This document shows, piece by piece, positions 6,127 through 54,512 of a stretch of 54,512 nt of DNA. The stretch lies in the IMG/VR virus record IMGVR_UViG_2529293142_000033. One strand, written 5' to 3'. Under the pieces are notes generated by a model. It saw only the letters and a list, made by a program, of their open reading frames with translations. It was not told the DNA's origin and did not search any database. Each line of letters begins with the position of its first letter. Position 1 is the stretch's first letter. Both the position numbers and the translations under genes were made by a program. Source of the stretch: a virus. Taxonomy: Duplodnaviria > Heunggongvirae > Uroviricota > Caudoviricetes.

Positions 6127-6989
6127 TTTGCTGCTCCTCATCATATCGACCCTGCAAGGTCGGTTGGTTTCTCCACAAAACAGAGAAGAACACCTGCGGT
6201 GGCAGCCGCCCGGATGGATTGGGTTATGAGCCCGTCGTCCGGTGATGCTCTTCTCTGTTTTGTAAAAAGAGCGGTACCAGCCGGAAGCAAGTGTACAAAC
6301 TGGTACCGCCAAAGCAGTGGCTGTTGTGGTGACCGGTGCTGATCTCCGGCTTGCGGTTATTTCAGACTCTCACGGGCGTTTAATTGCCCCGCCGAACAGC
6401 TCTTTTCCGCAATAGCTGCAATGTCTTTCGCGCATCAGCCTGCGCATTCACCACAACGCTGAGAGCACTTAGCCAGTTACGGCACCACACTTTGTCGCGG
6501 CTCCATAAATGCCCTCATCGTTGCCCCCTGGTCTCTTCCCAGGCGTCAAACCGAATCGCCACGCTGGTTAGGCGTCTTATCAGCATCATCATTGACTTGC
6601 ACATTCCGGCTACCTGGTTTGTTTGCCCGAGCAGGGAGTGGATAGTCCCCTTTAACGTCCCCAGACCGCTAACGACGCATGTGCCATACGCCGTGATACA
6701 ACAATATGTTCGGTATTAGTTACCAAAGAGACGATTACTCTTATGGTTGAATGTAATACCCATGTTGAATATTTTTCTTGCTTACTATTTGTTTTATCTA
6801 TGTGGTGAACTGGTTTTTGTTTACACAAGAAAAAGTTTTCTTAAGTAAGTTTACATTGTTTTGTCTTGCTATTTTTTTAAATTCAAGAACAATAAATTGC
6901 CGCTATCAGTAATTATTCTTTATGAAATTTTATAAATAACTCCCTGCTTTTGAGTTCTGTACGCAGTGTTTTTAGTTGTCGAGGACATA

Positions 6990-7394: not shown

Positions 7395-8068
7395 TCAGGC
7401 TTTAATTTTGTATCTTCTTGGTTTTCCTGAGAAAATAACTGTACCAATGATAGAGCAATTACCGTTTATCTTAATGTAAGGCTCAGGCCAGTTGGGGTTT
7501 AATGCTTTGAGATAACGCTGTGTCCCGTCTTCTATCAACCTTTTGAAGGTGGTTTCACCTGTATCGTGCATCAATGCAATAACGTCATCGCCGTGGCAGG
7601 CTGGTACTTCTGGATCGACAAAAATCATGTCTCCCGGACGGTACTCATCAATCATTGAATCACCAATCACCCTCAATATATAAGTCATTTCGCCACAGGG
7701 TACAGGGCAGGGATACGTTTCTGTTGTGCTCAAATCAACCTCAGAATAGCCAACTTCTTTCCATGCTCCGGCCTGTACCCATGATATGACAGGGACTAAC
7801 GTTATTTTTTATTAGTGATTGAAACATCAGGTTTTTTTGTGATGTTCGTTGTCTGGTGTTCTTGATCAAGCCATCCGACAGGCAGGTCGAAACATTTTTC
7901 GATGTGCCGTGCCATGCTGTCACCGATATTTTTAGTAGCGCCATCCCCCATAAACCTGCTGGTCTGGGTAGGCTCGCGATCAATCATGGTGGCAAAGGAT
8001 GAATTTCCGCCAACACCATCTCTCAGTTTTCTGGCGTTAGACCGCCGGATGTCATGGATTGTTTTCAT
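7395..8068 (-). pseudogene. CI-like repressor (N-terminal HTH plus C-terminal S24 LexA-type peptidase domain), reading frame broken by -1 shift at T6/A6 tract 7805-7810
   Basis: N-terminal ORF 7802-8068 (MKTIHDIRRSNARKL..) ends at the A-run; C-terminal frame from 7808 reads KITLVPVISWVQAGAWKE..GDSM (Ala-Gly autocleavage site and S24 motif); one extra A would fuse them. Confidence 0.75.
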
Positions 8069-46907: not shown

Positions 46908-48449
46908 ATGCCAACAGTTCCAATTTCTATGAGAAAACTTAAAGAAATTCTTAGGCTTAAATACGGTGTTGGACTCAGCCATCGACAAATTGGTCGTAGT
47001 CTTGCAATCTCCCCTTCCGTTGTATCCAGATATGCTAATCGGGCGGCTCAACTTGGCATAAAGCAGTGGCCCTTACCTACAGGATGGGATGATACAAAAC
47101 TAAAACATGCGTTCCTTCAGACCCAGGTTAAGATGAAGAAGCACTCTCTGCCTGACTGGGCTACAGTACACCGGGAACTGCGTAATAAATGCGTGACGCT
47201 GCAGCTACTCTGGGAAGAATACTGTGAGCGTAATCCAGGCGGTTTTTACAGCTATAACCATTACTGCCGGATGTACCGTGAATGGCTCAAAACCACTTCA
47301 CCATCAATGCGTCAGGTACATAAAGCTGGCGAAAAACTTTTCGTTGATTACTGTGGACCTACCGTTGGCGTTACCGACCCTGAGACCGGAGAAATAAGAA
47401 CTGCTCAGGTCATCGTAGCTGTTCTCGGGGCATCAAGTTACACATGGGCAGAGGCCACCTGGTCTCAGCAGCTTGAAGACTGGGTGATGAGTCATGTTCG
47501 CTGCTTCCAGTGGTTGGGTGGCGTTCCTGAACTTGTTGTTCCGGACAATCTGAAAAGCGCCACATCCAGGGCATGTAAGTATGATCCTGACGTTAACCCT
47601 ACCTACCAGCAGATGCTTGAGCATTATAATGTCGCAGTTTTGCCTGCGCGGCCACGTAAACCGAAAGATAAAGCCAAAGCTGAAGTTGGCGTTCAGGTTG
47701 TTGAACGCTGGATCATGGCCCGAATCAGGCATGAGATCTTCTACAGCCTTGCATCGCTTAATCAGCGCATTCGGGAGTTGCTGGAAAGACTGAATAACAA
47801 AATAATGCAGAAGTTGGGTTATTCACGTGCAGAACTCTTCATCCAGCTTGATAAACCCGCACTGAAGCCTCTTCCTGAAGCCAGTTACAGTTACACCCTG
47901 GTGAAGAAAGTCAGAGTTCATGCCGATTACCACGTGGAAATCGACAAACATTACTACTCGGTTCCATGTTCGCTGTTAGGCCAGCAACTGGAAGCATGGA
48001 TCTCCGGAGAACTGGTAAGACTCTTCAATCAGGGGCAGGAGGTTGCTGTGCACCCGCGCAAGCGTACTTATGGCTACAGTACCCGCAACGAGCACATGCC
48101 TGAAGCTCATCGACAGCATGCCACCTGGACGCCAGAGCGTCTTCTGGAATGGGCGGGGCACATAGGCAGTGAAACTCATAGTTATGTGCTTCATATACTG
48201 AACTCTCGTCCACATCCGGAACAAAGCTATCGCTTCTGCCTTGGACTCCTGAACCTTCATAAAAAATACAGTAAAGCCAGACTTAATGCAGCATGTGCAA
48301 GAGCTCTGAAAACAAAGGTATGGCGTCTGTCAGGTATTAAATCGATCCTGGAAAAAGGTCTGGATAAACAACCTGTTCAGGATCCAAAACCAGATCTGTT
48401 ATCCACGATGGAACACGAAAACGTACGCGGCAGTGAGTATTACCACTGA
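46908..48449 (+). CDS. istA: IS21-family transposase IstA
   Basis: 513 aa with N-terminal HTH and DDE integrase-like core; followed by istB. Confidence 0.85.
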   Translation: MPTVPISMRKLKEILRLKYGVGLSHRQIGRSLAISPSVVSRYANRAAQLGIKQWPLPTGWDDTKLKHAFLQTQVKMKKHSLPDWATVHRELRNKCVTLQLLWEEYCERNPGGFYSYNHYCRMYREWLKTTSPSMRQVHKAGEKLFVDYCGPTVGVTDPETGEIRTAQVIVAVLGASSYTWAEATWSQQLEDWVMSHVRCFQWLGGVPELVVPDNLKSATSRACKYDPDVNPTYQQMLEHYNVAVLPARPRKPKDKAKAEVGVQVVERWIMARIRHEIFYSLASLNQRIRELLERLNNKIMQKLGYSRAELFIQLDKPALKPLPEASYSYTLVKKVRVHADYHVEIDKHYYSVPCSLLGQQLEAWISGELVRLFNQGQEVAVHPRKRTYGYSTRNEHMPEAHRQHATWTPERLLEWAGHIGSETHSYVLHILNSRPHPEQSYRFCLGLLNLHKKYSKARLNAACARALKTKVWRLSGIKSILEKGLDKQPVQDPKPDLLSTMEHENVRGSEYYH

Positions 48450-48460
48450 TACGGGATCCA

Positions 48461-49210
48461 ATGATGAATCATCTTTACGAACAACTGACCGCACTTAAAC
48501 TCACCGGCTTCCGTGATGCGCTTAAAAAGCAACTTGCTCAGCCGGGCACATACCAGGAGCTGGGCTTCGAAGAACGCCTGTCATTACTGACAGCAGAAGA
48601 ACTAACCTGCCGTGAAAACAGGAAGGCAGAGCGTCTGATCAAACATGCACGGTTCAGACTTAATGCTGAGTTATCAAAGCTGGATTATCGTAACAATAGA
48701 GGGCTGGACAGGGCCCTCATCCGTTCACTCAGTCAGGGAAACTGGTTAACCCTGAAACAAAATATTTTACTGACCGGGGCCACCGGCAGCGGTAAAACGT
48801 TCCTGGCATGTGCACTTGGTCATAATGCCTGCCGACAGGGATACAAGGTCTACTATTATCGCCTTAAAGCGCTGATGGAACAGTGCTATCAGGGGCATGC
48901 TGATGGAAGATACAGCAAACTTTTGACCAGGCTGAATAATAGCGATCTGCTGCTTCTGGATGACTGGGGGCTGGAACCTCTCTCATCAGAACAGCGTAGC
49001 GACCTGCTGGAAATAGTGGATCTGATGTACCAACGAGGCTCAATCATCGTAGTGAGCCAGTTGCCGGTGGAAAACTGGTACAAAATGATCGGAGACTCCA
49101 CACATGCGGATGCCATCCTAGATCGACTGGTTCATGGCAGTATCAAGATCGAACTTAAAGGAGAATCAATGCGGAAAATACAATCTCCGTTGACCGAAGG
49201 AGATCAGTGA
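48461..49210 (+). CDS. istB: IS21-family ATP-binding helper IstB
   Basis: 249 aa with Walker A LLTGATGSGKTF and Walker B LLLLDDWG. Confidence 0.85.
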   Translation: MMNHLYEQLTALKLTGFRDALKKQLAQPGTYQELGFEERLSLLTAEELTCRENRKAERLIKHARFRLNAELSKLDYRNNRGLDRALIRSLSQGNWLTLKQNILLTGATGSGKTFLACALGHNACRQGYKVYYYRLKALMEQCYQGHADGRYSKLLTRLNNSDLLLLDDWGLEPLSSEQRSDLLEIVDLMYQRGSIIVVSQLPVENWYKMIGDSTHADAILDRLVHGSIKIELKGESMRKIQSPLTEGDQ

Positions 49211-49267: not shown

Positions 49268-49978
49268 TCACCGATCTCCTTCACGGTAATACGCACTTTC
49301 CACACAGGCATTGTCATAACAGTAGCCTTTCGCACTCATACTGCCACGCAGGTTGTGTCGCTTCAGCAGCGCCTGATAATCCCCTGAACAGTATTGACCA
49401 CCACGGTCCGTATGAACAATGACGCTTTCCGGGCGTCTTCTCCGCCACAACGCCATTTGCAGTGCATCACAGGCCAGTTGTACTGTCATTCGCGGTGACA
49501 TCGACCAGCCAATGACGGCGCGTGACCACAGGTCGATGACTACTGCGAGATACAACCAGCCCTCATCGGTACGCAAGTATGTGATGTCACCCGCCCACTT
49601 CTGGTTCGGGCCACTGGCGCTGAAGTCCTGCTCCAGCAGATTCTCCAATACGGGCAGGCCATGTGCACGGTAGCTGACCGGGCTGAACTTCCGGCTGGCT
49701 TTCGCCTGCAGCCCCTGACGACGTAGGCTGGCGGCAATGGTTTTAATATTGAACTCCGGCAGTTCGTCAGCAAGGCGGGGAGCACCGTATCGCTGCTTTG
49801 CCTCAAAGAATGCCTTATGGACAGCGGCATCGCAGGTGAGCCGAAACTGTTGGCGCAGGCTCATCTGGTGACGACGCCTGAGCCAGACATACCAGCCGCT
49901 GCGGGCAACCCGAAGTACACGACACATCACTTTGATGCTGAACTCTGCCCGATGATTTTCGATGAAGACATACTTCAT
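49268..49978 (-). pseudogene. IS3-family transposase orfB, 5' part (truncated by IS21 insertion; last codons read into IS21 end)
   Basis: ..[46 protein letters not shown] then unrelated tail; matches IS3-family OrfB. Confidence 0.8.
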
Positions 49979-50199
49979 TTCAGGCGGACATTTTCAGCGG
50001 CCAGTTCGCTTTCGCGCTCTGACGAACTCATTTGTTGCTGCTGTTTACTGCGCCAGGTATAAAGCTGAGATTCATACAGGCTGAGTTCACGGGCTGCGGC
50101 GGCCACACCGATGCGTTCAGTGAGTTTCAGGGCTTCGTTACGAAATTCAGGCGTATGTTGTTTACGGGGCTTCTTGCTGATTGATACTGGTTTTGTCAT
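49975..50199 (-). CDS. IS3-family transposase orfA
   Basis: 74-aa HTH protein overlapping orfB start, typical orfA/orfB frameshift arrangement. Confidence 0.7.
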
Positions 50200-50299: not shown

Positions 50300-51130
50300 T
50301 CAGAGAATGATTTTGGGATATGTAATGAAGTAATGCTTAAACTTTTTTGGAGTTATTCCAAAATATTCCCTAAATTTTTTTATGAAGTATGATGGACTCG
50401 ACATTCCTACTTCCGATGATATCTGAGATATCTGGAGATTGTTTTCGATTATAAGATCCATAGCTCTATTTAATCTTATTTGTAAAGCCATTCCGCTGAT
50501 GGTCAAATTTTCTTTTGCAAGTCGTTTTCTTACTGCAGACTCAGATAGGTGAAAATGCTTAGCTATATCCCGAACGCACCATTTTCTCTTTATGTTCATT
50601 TCAATAAATGCTCTTACCTTATCACTAAAGTGACTGACAGATGATGTAAGCAACGAACGAATGATGTAATCACGATCTTTGAATTTTGAGATAAAAAGTA
50701 GCGTCTTAATCAAAATTAGTTTTTCATCATTGGTAGTTGCAAGTTTTTTGAAAAAGAGTATAAGCTCATCTGTAGGCGTAAGTGTCAGTATTTTATCTCT
50801 TGATATTGCTGATTGATTAATTACCTGATGCCCTTTAAAGTAGATTTCTGCAATTACTCGTCGGAGTGTTTGTAGTTTATCCTCGTTGAATCTTATTGCC
50901 ACATATGGTTCTTTATGTTCATCATTCTTTTTCAGGTAGGCAGAAAAACAAGTTCCTTTATCAATGAAAATGAATTGGTTAAACCCGCATGTCAGTTTTT
51001 TATTTGATAGTGAGAAATTAATAGTGCAATTATTTGTATAAAGAATGATATATTTACTGGTTCTTATGTTAACGATCTTTAACTTTCTTTGTGAATGATG
51101 TTTGATGCTATTAATCATGTGTTTAGCCAT
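50300..51130 (-). CDS. AraC-family transcriptional regulator (AT-rich, horizontally acquired)
   Basis: 276 aa; C-terminal double-HTH (VRDIAKHFHLSESAVRKRLAKENLTISGMALQIRLNRAMDL..ISQISSEVGMSSPSYFIKKFREYFGITPKKF); markedly AT-rich gene. Confidence 0.8.
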   Translation of the reverse strand: MAKHMINSIKHHSQRKLKIVNIRTSKYIILYTNNCTINFSLSNKKLTCGFNQFIFIDKGTCFSAYLKKNDEHKEPYVAIRFNEDKLQTLRRVIAEIYFKGHQVINQSAISRDKILTLTPTDELILFFKKLATTNDEKLILIKTLLFISKFKDRDYIIRSLLTSSVSHFSDKVRAFIEMNIKRKWCVRDIAKHFHLSESAVRKRLAKENLTISGMALQIRLNRAMDLIIENNLQISQISSEVGMSSPSYFIKKFREYFGITPKKFKHYFITYPKIIL

Positions 51131-52026
51131 TTTTTTGGGGTGTGGTAATTATAACTATCAACTTCCTCAATGGAATATCTTGGCATTAAAAATAGGATGT
51201 TTTTATTAAATTTTGGCCGCTGTGGTTAAAGTAAAGGATGAGTTAATATCCAGTCCATCCTTAATGGGAGTGATTAGTTCACCATCAGATAAATCGTAAG
51301 TGGTGTTTTTGGGGGCTCGTCAAGCTCAAAAATGGCCGGGAGAAAATTGGATATAACTACAGGGTAGGACTTACGAAAGTGACAGAGTTGCTATAGGAAT
51401 ATAAAAACATTCATGGTGAACTGGGGTCTGAAAAGTCACATGCCCTCATTAGAAATGGTAGCATTTTAAGTGTGGGAATGAAAAACAGAAGAGCAAAAAT
51501 CATCCATAATATGTAGAATTAGATCATGTCAACCCATATTTAGTCCTTGTTCGATAGCAAGCCTCATTGACTTCGCCGTTATCACCAGATATGGCGAGTT
51601 CTTTGTAAGTGGGAGAGCTATTTTTAGATGTCGTGCAGCAGACATTTTTGCCGAGCGCTTCATCCGGAGCGATGAACCGTAGATTTTTCTGGTTGGAGCC
51701 GATCATATGTGATGCTATGGGGATATTTTTTCAGTAGGCTAGGTGGGAATTGTACCGTTAATATTATAGGCTTCTACCCAGTAAAAAGAGGCGAGGAAAC
51801 ATGCACGACAGGTGCTACACGTCATGCATAGATTGGGATTACTCATGACTAGCCACAGCTATAGGTCGTTAAGAGATTCGCAGCACGCTGTATGCAATAA
51901 CGTGCTGCGGCTGGCTGGTGAACTTTCGATAGTGCGAGTATTGAATGATTTCCAGCCGTTACCGATTTTACGTGTTTATTATTGAACAAACCACTCGTCA
52001 GCAGACTCCCTGGTATCTTTCAGAGT

Positions 52027-52227
52027 CTACTGAACAAATGTTTTTGCAGAATCCTTATCTGCGGTGCGTGTAACAGAAAGCTCATCATTGCTGGTGGCTT
52101 TTACGATCACTTCTACATCGTCATAACGCTTACTGATGCGCCGAGTTAATTCTTCCTTTAACGCATCCACAGCACTGTTTGGCATTTTAGTCATTTTCTC
52201 TTTGGCTATGCAGATATCAATACGCAT
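52027..52227 (-). CDS. DinI-like protein
   Basis: 66 aa, [26 protein letters not shown] resembles DinI. Confidence 0.6.
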
Positions 52228-52288
52228 AAAAATCCCTCCACGCTGTGTTTATATACAGTGTTATTTTTAACTGTGTAAATAAACAGTA

Positions 52289-53386
52289 TCAAGAGGTCTT
52301 GTTTCTGCTCCTTTGGAGTTCTTCAAAACGATTATGTAAAGATTTCGGATACAGTTCGGTATATACCTGCCATAGCACGTTTAATGAACGATGCCCTGTA
52401 ACCTGAGCGACTTCCTCAATACTAAAACCAGCCTCAAATAAGCGACTTGCCCCTTCCCTACGCAAATCATGGTATCGCAGATCTTTAATACCTAATTTGC
52501 TTCTTACCCTCTGAAATCCTGCGGTAACAGAAGTGCTGTTATATGGAAAAATGAATTCTGATTTTTGGGGTTGTTGCTGGACGATATCCCAGGCTTCCCC
52601 AAGCAAGGCAACTTTCATATGGTTGCCTTCCTTTTTACGTGGATCTTTCCTATCTCTTACTAGTATAGATTTTTGTTCCTGGTCGAGATCTTCCCATCGT
52701 AACCGGCATACTTCTCCAATTCGCATACAGGACCACACAGAAAATTTGAGGATATCAACGAACGGAATTTTTGAGCATTTATGAGTAGATCGTTGTTGAA
52801 GGCCTTCAATGAGCATGTCCAGTTCATCAGATGCTGGTCTACGATTACGACGGTTTGATTTACCAATCAAACCGAGTTTAAGTAGATATGGACGAGCGCT
52901 TTTCGCCGGGTTTGATGTGTAATTGATTCCGTATACAGGTTTTGCCGCATCCAGAACACTGCCAAGATAACTAACATCGTGGCTGACTGTTGCTGGGCCT
53001 GCACCAGCGTTGTTTCTTAGCCTGCAATGTTCAATTACGTCATTTTCTGTCAGTTCAGATAGTTTGATCGCGGAGATGTCGCTATCCATAAGCAGTTCCA
53101 GCACATATCTTTTAGTACGGCCTGCTTTACCTCCGGCATTTGGGTCATTTAAATATTTGTGTAGTAAGTCACGGACTGTAAGTCCGTCAACAGCATTTGA
53201 TGATGGAATGCCATATAGATCTAATTCCATCACTTTCTGTGCGCCCCATGTTTTGGCATGAGCATGTTTAGGGAATGTTTTGCTTTCCCTGTAAGTGATA
53301 ACACCTTTTTCTTTGATAATCACATTACAGCGATAGCGTGGTGTGCCATCGGATTTTAGTCGTTTCTCTATGTTATAGTACGCCAT
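52289..53386 (-). CDS. tyrosine-type site-specific integrase (dusA-associated)
   Basis: 365 aa, C-terminal catalytic region with conserved R..H..R..Y pattern (..DLRYHDLRREGASRLFEAGF..VAQVTGHRSLNVLWQVYTELYP); immediately adjacent and divergent to dusA. Confidence 0.9.
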   Translation of the reverse strand: MAYYNIEKRLKSDGTPRYRCNVIIKEKGVITYRESKTFPKHAHAKTWGAQKVMELDLYGIPSSNAVDGLTVRDLLHKYLNDPNAGGKAGRTKRYVLELLMDSDISAIKLSELTENDVIEHCRLRNNAGAGPATVSHDVSYLGSVLDAAKPVYGINYTSNPAKSARPYLLKLGLIGKSNRRNRRPASDELDMLIEGLQQRSTHKCSKIPFVDILKFSVWSCMRIGEVCRLRWEDLDQEQKSILVRDRKDPRKKEGNHMKVALLGEAWDIVQQQPQKSEFIFPYNSTSVTAGFQRVRSKLGIKDLRYHDLRREGASRLFEAGFSIEEVAQVTGHRSLNVLWQVYTELYPKSLHNRFEELQRSRNKTS

Positions 53387-53474
53387 TACACGACCTCGTT
53401 ATTTCGGGTTCCCATAAAACGTGGGAACCTATGCGGGAACCTAATGCGAGAAAAATAGCCTGAAATGTTCAAAA

Positions 53475-54512
53475 ATGCACGATAATCATGAAACACAAAA
53501 AATTAATCAAACCAGCGTGATGCCGGAAAAAACTGGTGTTTACTGGAATTCTCGGTTTAGCATTGCTCCTATGCTCGACTGGACGGACAGACATTGCCGC
53601 TATTTCTTGCGTCTGCTTTCCCGCAATACGTTGCTGTATACCGAAATGGTGACCACAGGGGCGATTATTCACGGTAAAGGTGATTATCTGGCGTACAGTG
53701 AAGAAGAACATCCGGTAGCGTTGCAACTGGGCGGTAGCGATCCGGCGGCGCTGGCGCAGTGTGCAAAGCTGGCAGAAGCGCGCGGATATGATGAGATCAA
53801 CCTGAATGTCGGCTGCCCGTCTGACCGGGTGCAGAACGGCATGTTTGGTGCGTGTCTGATGGGTAATGCGCAGCTGGTTGCCGACTGTGTGAAAGCGATG
53901 CGCGATGTGGTGTCGATTCCAGTGACGGTGAAAACGCGTATTGGCATCGATGACCAGGACAGCTATGAATTTCTCTGCGATTTCATCAACACTGTTTCCG
54001 GCAAAGGCGAGTGTGAGATGTTTATCATCCACGCACGTAAAGCCTGGCTTTCGGGGTTAAGCCCGAAAGAAAACCGTGAAATCCCGCCGCTCGATTATCC
54101 GCGTGTGTATCAACTGAAGCGTGACTTTCCGCATCTGACAATGTCGATTAACGGTGGTATCAAGTCGCTGGAAGAGGCCAAAGCACACCTGCAACATATG
54201 GATGGCGTGATGGTCGGGCGCGAGGCGTATCAGAATCCGGGTATTCTGGCGGCAGTAGACCGGGAGATCTTTGGTTCCTCGGATACCGATGCCGATCCGG
54301 TGGCGGTAGTGCGCGCCATGTATCCGTACATTGAGCGTGAACTCAGCCAGGGGACGTATCTCGGCCATATTACCCGGCATATGTTGGGCTTGTTCCAGGG
54401 TATTCCTGGCGCGCGGCAGTGGCGGCGTTATTTAAGTGAAAATGCCCATAAAGCGGGTGCAGACATTAATGTGCTGGAACACGCGCTCAAACTGGTGGCG
54501 GATAAGCGTTAA
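53475..54512 (+). CDS. dusA: tRNA-dihydrouridine synthase A, full length with diverged 5' end
   Basis: 345 aa; body matches DusA; first ~34 codons differ from the displaced host fragment at 1071-1174. Confidence 0.9.

Follow-up and report, generated by a model that had tools for sequence, protein, structure and literature searches.

A DinI-like gene with a premature amber stop at the integrase end of a decaying lambdoid-type prophage

Results

A DinI-like gene between a dusA-type integrase and prophage cargo

The stretch of DNA analysed here (hereafter, the window) is a 54,512-nucleotide Caudoviricetes record (IMG/VR IMGVR_UViG_2529293142_000033). Near its right end, on the minus strand, an open reading frame of 66 codons (52027..52227) begins with ATG and is preceded, 6 nt 5′ of that start codon, by a Shine-Dalgarno sequence, GGAGGG (52234..52239, minus strand), which was found by direct reading of the sequence and is kept in 4/4 aligned relatives. 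An initial annotation had called this gene a DinI homologue. Profile searches agree: the 66-aa protein matches Pfam DinI (PF06183) with 43 bits (E = 5.8e-11; gathering cut-off 24.2) over profile positions 1–44 of 63, and PHROG 189 ("RecA filament binding protein DinI") with 73.9 bits over positions 71–134 of 151. Because it scores 40.8 bits against the NCBIfam DinI equivalog NF007893, below the cut-off of 111, we class the gene by these scores as a phage-type (phage-borne) paralogue and not an orthologue of chromosomal dinI. In RefSeq the 66-aa product has an exact counterpart, WP_001217107.1, named "DinI-like family protein"; membership of the DinI-like family, the position of the gene and its SOS boxes are all already known or annotated.

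The gene was also said to lie between the integrase and an accessory region, and it does. A dusA-type tyrosine integrase of 365 aa (52289..53386, minus strand; Pfam Phage_integrase, 74.9 bits) is located 61 bp upstream on the same strand and is divergent from dusA (53475 onward); a RefSeq integrase also of 365 aa, WP_000332257.1, occupies the same position by dusA in closely related E. coli prophages. Cargo and insertion sequences lie on the other side. Directly 3′ of the dinI cassette is a ykgJ-like (CxxCxxCC) pseudogene (51524..51846, minus strand), which has an in-frame stop and a 1-nt deletion relative to the intact gene of E. coli A24. The A24 counterpart encodes 109 aa, matches Pfam PF03692 and is ~78% identical to the chromosomal ykgJ locus, while a Pfam search of the fragments of the window pseudogene returned nothing significant. 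Farther along the cargo region are an AraC-family regulator gene (50300-51130, minus strand, 276 aa), an IS3-family orfA/orfB pair (49268-50199, minus strand) and an IS21-family element encoding a 513-aa transposase and a 249-aa IstB-like ATPase (46908-49210). Both insertion sequences lie between a tail-fibre assembly gene and the cargo, where sister prophages have an alpha/beta hydrolase gene. The best NCBIfam similarities of the AraC-family regulator are weak (YdeO, GadX and HilD), and its DNA, which appears AT-rich by eye, shares 76% identity with that of an HTH regulator located on a plasmid in the three E. coli strains with sister prophages.

Both prophage junctions can be recognised. A phage-supplied dusA 5′ end on the attR side (53472..53578, plus strand) forms a 107-nt direct repeat with the displaced original dusA 5′ end on the attL side (1068-1174, 82% identical), which lies beside yjbM (DUF2713); the prophage therefore spans ~1175-53570. 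Elements with dusA-associated integrases are known to bring their own dusA 5′ end and to leave the old one at the far junction (Farrugia et al. 2015, PMC4482086), and the window prophage has this arrangement. The window thus contains a complete prophage of ~52 kb inserted in the dusA 5′ end, with the integrase and dinI at the extremity most distant from the early-left genes. Three complete E. coli genomes have sister prophages, which are 97–98% identical to it over the shared regions (55–77% of each query), combine lambdoid early genes with a contractile, Mu-like tail, and encode the same 66-aa protein, WP_001217107.1.

A promoter with two LexA boxes and a conserved 3′ hairpin

If the gene were SOS-regulated, a LexA box would be expected upstream of position 52227, and two were found there. 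A promoter scan placed a sigma-70-like promoter at 52263..52292 on the minus strand (TTGATA, 52292..52287; an 18-nt spacer; AAAAAT, 52268..52263; 9/12 matches), whose −35 hexamer overlaps the stop codon of the integrase gene. The distal LexA box, AACTGTGTAAATAAACAGTA as written on the plus strand (52269..52288), lies in the spacer between the −35 and −10 hexamers and has a perfect CTGT-N8-ACAG core (52271-86), and the proximal box, CGCTGTGTTTATATACAGTG (52241..52260), lies between the −10 hexamer and the Shine-Dalgarno sequence and also has a perfect core (52243-58), so that the two bracket the −10 hexamer. At the level of sequence, two perfect-core boxes overlapping a sigma-70-like promoter point to SOS (LexA) control. 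Across the 54.5-kb window, CTGT-N8-ACAG occurs six times, against 0.83 expected (0/100 shuffles reached six), and two of the six sites stand directly upstream of the DinI-like gene.

We also scored the window with a symmetric LexA matrix; it was built from 20 E. coli operators, and its bit scores are approximate (training range 13.2–28.0 bits, median 21.4). The distal box ranked first (24.8 bits) and the proximal box third (21.3 bits), both inside the range of known E. coli boxes on this approximate scale, and none of 30 shuffled windows gave a score of 21 bits or more. Ranked second was an unrelated site, TACTGTATTTATGAACAGTA (13043-13062, 24.3 bits), located just after rusA and upstream of an ORF (13053..13964, plus strand) encoding a KilA-N domain protein that matches PHROG 129 ("transcriptional regulator") from residue 33. 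On sequence grounds, this ORF is a candidate SOS-controlled, KilA-N/antirepressor-like gene. In one sister prophage (L003), no LexA-like site of comparable strength was found outside its own dinI promoter.

The arrangement is shared with relatives. The promoter, two LexA boxes and Shine-Dalgarno sequence are kept in E. coli A24 and in phage cdtI, the boxes despite differing DNA 5′ of the −35 hexamer, which is TTGACA in both relatives versus TTGATA in the window; homology between cdtI and the window begins at this hexamer. In each related locus scanned, the top two LexA sites were the same two dinI boxes. The proximal box shares its entire 16-nt core with the presumptive LexA box 5′ of the Gifsy-2 dinI homologue, where swapping the segment that contains the box abolished mitomycin-dependent activation (PMC3121763). 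We infer that LexA binds the dinI boxes in vivo and that the SOS promoter of the window copy is still active.

The cassette is closed by a conserved stem-loop (51879..51909, minus strand; RNAalifold consensus, with three compensatory pairs among the window, A24 and cdtI), followed by a T-rich tail in A24 and cdtI that is weaker in the window. It is a probable terminator or RNA-stabilising hairpin, and our interpretation of the conserved stretch 3′ of dinI is a 3′ UTR followed by this terminator hairpin. Two other candidates in the same stretch were rejected: a small ORF (51849..51989) without a Pfam match, and a small RNA, for which the sole Rfam match was CssrB, an sRNA encoded by the Shigella chromosome, on the plus strand (51804-51909), opposite to dinI, at 27 bits far below the gathering score of 76 and confined almost wholly to the conserved hairpin. 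RefSeq also has a 46-aa "capsid protein" here, WP_086204751.1 (51845-51985, plus strand; 6166-6306 in locus L001), antisense to the dinI 3′ UTR and hairpin; overlapping the vestigial dinI tail as well as the hairpin, it looks like a spurious call.

An amber codon interrupts the usual 82-aa protein

The ORF is short because codon 67 (52027-52029) is the amber codon TAG where 82-aa relatives have GAG: DNA alignment shows TAG in the window and in EC12 versus GAG in E. coli A24. Exactly 82 aa, the length of 61 of the 134 related proteins retrieved, is the standard length in this family, and the 16 residues lost from it are ETLKDTWESADEWFV. The DNA of the old tail is still present beyond the current ORF. 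Codons 68–82 survive as vestigial sequence (TLKDTRESADEWFVQ) up to the ancestral TAA (51979-81), together occupying 51979..52026 on the minus strand, and the old frame past TAG reads TLKDT(W/R)ESADEWFVQ up to that TAA. The alternative at residue 73 reflects AGG in place of TGG at codon 73 (52009-52011), a W73R change common to the window and to locus L005, while seven other loci with the TAG allele keep TGG. L005 (GCA_002486035.1), the nearest assembly, matches the window at every position of the 451-nt dinI region compared, and its AraC and IS3 genes downstream are those of the window.

Database records place the identical 66-aa protein on 747 contigs, and it adjoins the dusA integrase in 7/7 places inspected. 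Because of this recurrence on 747 contigs we regard the stop codon as real and reject sequencing error as its source. The sequence identifies 52027..52227 as a nonsense allele of the 82-aa protein that is usual in phages.

No part of the phage DinI-like proteins is better conserved than the lost segment: E67, T68, W73, E74, A76, D77, W79 and F80 are conserved in 56–61 of the 61 full-length relatives. The truncated allele also has D4 and S18, both absent from 61/61 full-length relatives, in which position 4 is E in 60/61 and position 18 is G in 61/61. These two substitutions (E4D and G18S) in the truncated lineage, and W73R in the vestigial tail, are evidence suggestive of relaxed constraint; divergence within the TAG lineage (0–1 differences in 451 nt) is too low for a formal test of relaxed selection.

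Other alleles of the family have been truncated independently near the same helix, including forms of 72 and 58 aa whose last residue is T72, immediately ahead of W73, and forms of 68 aa, one of which is on 84 contigs (truncated relatives include P0017, P0024, P0027, P0075 and P0123). Three further phage DinI-like relatives (P0001-P0003) have internal duplications.

The initial annotation described such genes as common in lambdoid prophages, and our searches bear this out. At the protein level, 133 phage records gave matches, among them Stx-converting phages, cdtI, mEp460 and VT1-Sakai. Of 5,426 complete E. coli genomes, 1,677 carry the dinI cassette at 60–100% identity, some of them in as many as five copies. 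The truncated lineage is rare among these, with three of the 1,677 cassette-bearing genomes carrying it at ≥99% identity. A scan of species-representative genomes for both alleles returned just one full-length E. coli copy and was uninformative on host range.

The truncation removes most of the predicted RecA-binding surface

Structural comparison was made with an intact 82-aa sibling (P0005), which matches the PDB entries of E. coli DinI (1GHH and 7YWA) over its full length (E = 5.9e-13). Its AlphaFold model (pLDDT 73.5) superposes on 7YWA_A and 1GHH with TM scores of 0.74–0.77 and contains strands at residues 2–8, 39–45 and 51–55 and helices at 19–32 and 59–81. By this model, the stop removes 15 of the 23 residues of helix 2 (59–81) and leaves eight, so the complete beta-alpha-beta-beta-alpha DinI fold is absent from the 66-aa product and a beta-alpha-beta-beta core remains. 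AlphaFold predicted the 66-aa product with pLDDT 74–84 over residues 1–50 and ~47–61 in its tail, a prediction that is no measure of stability.

In the cryo-EM structure of the RecA-DinI complex, RecA F203 enters a DinI pocket formed by L13, L21, W71, W77 and F78, while E24, E69 and D76 of DinI form an acidic patch opposite a basic patch of RecA (Gao et al. 2023, PMC9926225). [quoted passage not shown] In our alignment of P0005 with DinI, the equivalents of W71, W77, F78, E69 and D76 are W73, W79, F80, D71 and E78, all of which lie past the TAG. Three of the five pocket residues and two of the three acidic residues of E. coli DinI thus have no counterpart in the 66-aa product, which retains M15, L23 and E26 (the equivalents of L13, L21 and E24). 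Because these pocket and acidic residues are missing along with the C-terminal RecA-binding helix, RecA filament binding is predicted to be lost. By profile, the 66-aa product is a DinI-like family member, yet it is without the complete fold and the RecA-binding helix.

Decay elsewhere in the prophage

The window prophage is decaying at several places besides dinI, namely at the ykgJ-like gene, at its cI-type repressor gene and through insertion of IS elements. The repressor gene (HTH and Peptidase_S24 domains; 7395-8068, minus strand) is intact in E. coli 2015C-4136CT1, where it encodes 224 aa, and is split in the window into ORFs of 88 and 112 aa: an A-run near 7800 is one nucleotide shorter (A6 instead of A7), which separates the DNA-binding part from the peptidase part. 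This frameshift could reflect genuine decay or an error in sequencing the homopolymer; in the former case, the prophage no longer encodes a normal RecA-cleavable CI.

Discussion

A probable remnant, presumably still transcribed

The window copy is a nonsense allele and, we conclude with good though incomplete confidence, a non-functional remnant, still SOS-transcribed, in a decaying lambdoid-type prophage. The locus appears to be a self-contained, portable moron at the integrase end, consisting of a two-operator SOS promoter, a DinI-family gene and a 3′ hairpin. For its intact 82-aa form, LexA would repress the promoter until DNA damage activates RecA and LexA cleaves itself, whereupon the small 82-aa protein would be made. 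Its C-terminal helix would then dock in the RecA filament groove like that of E. coli DinI, stabilising the filament, and the docked protein would compete with LexA, UmuD and CI-type substrates. By analogy with E. coli DinI, LexA-repressed expression followed by DinI-like docking is the best-supported model for the intact family, in which RecA binding by the 82-aa form would be expected. The product of the window copy would stop before the helix, with the core kept and most of the RecA-binding surface gone, and we infer a loss of function from this truncation. These statements about the 66-aa protein draw on its sequence and on the known behaviour of E. coli DinI.

This bears on the proposal, in the initial annotation, that a prophage copy of DinI could tune SOS-dependent induction through RecA. 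Modulation of RecA is plausible for the family and unlikely for the window copy, in which the amber stop removes the RecA-binding helix. With the S24-type repressor frameshifted, there would therefore also be little normal SOS induction left to tune. Any benefit of a DinI-like gene to a prophage is so far hypothetical: in the sole experimental test of phage dinI homologues that we found, made on Gifsy prophages, deleting these genes non-polarly left induction unchanged (PMC3121763).

A counterpoint to reading the gene as a dead remnant is that the gene retains, in intact form, its promoter, two operators, Shine-Dalgarno sequence and first 66 codons, and the persistence of the TAG allele on hundreds of assemblies could mean that it is tolerated or that some use is retained. 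The truncation might be adaptive and the 66-aa product functional, with its core binding RecA in a second mode, binding another partner or acting as a dominant negative on chromosomal DinI. The intact expression signals and ORF would fit this proposal, as would the 747 contigs with the exact allele, the predicted folding of the core, the retained M15, L23 and E26, and the other family alleles cut short around the C-terminal helix (one of 72 aa whose last residue is T72, others of 68 and 58 aa). Against this, the segment lost is the family's most conserved and includes residues whose single substitution impaired DinI (PMC9926225), E4D and G18S fall at otherwise invariant positions, the lineage occurs in only three of the complete E. 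coli genomes that have the cassette, and the genes nearby are pseudogenes. We therefore consider a functional 66-aa product unlikely.

Less probable still is a broader proposal, that repeated independent loss of the helix (the 66-aa form on 747 contigs, the 72-aa form, and the 68-aa form on 84 contigs) is not neutral decay and reflects selection on dosage or a RecA-independent role for the core. If true, helix loss would indicate selection against excess DinI dosage in hosts with up to five cassettes or, alternatively, an SOS-induced core that remains useful independently of RecA.

The SOS promoter might instead serve a downstream antirepressor that induces the prophage, as in the LexA-controlled modules of phage 186 (Tum) and of Gifsy prophages (dinI-gftA-irsA). 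Tum has a DinI-like half (PMC3121763), and the core of the proximal LexA box is that of Gifsy-2. Inspection of the neighbours in the window, A24, cdtI and Gifsy-2, however, led us to reject such an operon for the window locus. Downstream of dinI in the window and A24, beyond the conserved hairpin, is a YkgJ-family CxxCxxCC gene that is not gfoA/gftA- or irsA-like, and an antirepressor of ~70 aa would not fit in the 136-nt gap of A24; the cassette of cdtI is on its own, with convergent cdt genes beyond it; and the gene annotated at the irsA position of Gifsy-2 (STM1020) is DUF1367, another family. At the window locus, no antirepressor is fused to the DinI-like gene or immediately beside it in one operon, the DinI-like proteins have no additional N-terminal domain (66 or 82 aa versus 146 aa in Tum), and the prophage has a repressor gene of the S24-type, self-cleaving kind. 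An antirepressor module is accordingly very improbable. The least probable reading is that amber read-through or suppression still yields the full-length protein, for although the ancestral frame is open for 15 codons to the original TAA and the tail is unchanged in seven other TAG-allele loci, an overall identity of 99.8% makes tail conservation uninformative, no recoding signal is present, amber suppressors are generally absent from natural E. coli isolates, and W73R in the window tail falls at the position of DinI W71, where substitution impairs DinI (PMC9926225).

The likely-remnant reading has modest consequences. Scoring of prophage cargo, as in association studies of DinI-like genes and quinolone susceptibility, should leave the 66-aa allele out of the tally of functional SOS modulators. 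The conserved two-LexA-box cassette illustrates cleanly what an SOS-controlled moron looks like and would suit use as an SOS reporter in lysogens. Overall, a routine annotation has been confirmed and refined, and the outcome matters little, in keeping with the modest interest first ascribed to the gene; our only addition is that the allele is truncated and probably inactive, which RefSeq does not flag.

Comparison with known DinI systems

The window gene differs from Tum of phage 186 in having no fused antirepressor domain. The Gifsy dinI homologues of Salmonella form the first gene of a LexA-controlled dinI-antirepressor-irsA operon in the nin region. The Gifsy-2 homologue (STM1019) is a DinI-family protein with 41% identity, preceded by a presumptive LexA operator with an identical 16-nt core and with a 73-aa ORF and the DUF1367 gene as neighbours. 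The window gene, unlike these, is at the integrase end, with a second operator, its own hairpin and a ykgJ-like gene next to it.

Chromosomal E. coli DinI (1GHH; RecA complex 7YWA) has the same family and fold as the full-length phage form, with ~40% identity to the phage-type protein, and shares with the 82-aa form a conserved W-x5-WF acidic C-terminal helix, the RecA-binding helix that the window copy is without. A promoter bearing LexA boxes is common to chromosomal dinI and the phage cassette, with one box in the former and two in the latter.

The nearest relatives are the 82-aa phage DinI-like proteins of cdtI (gp30, YP_001272543.1), VT1-Sakai (H0001), Stx-converting phages and mEp460, which RefSeq names "DinI-like family protein". 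They are 94–95% identical to the window copy over its 66 residues; the window copy departs from them in the amber at codon 67, with the last 16 residues gone, and in E4D and G18S, and it shares with their loci the two-LexA-box promoter, the Shine-Dalgarno sequence, the 3′ hairpin and the position at the integrase/cargo end.
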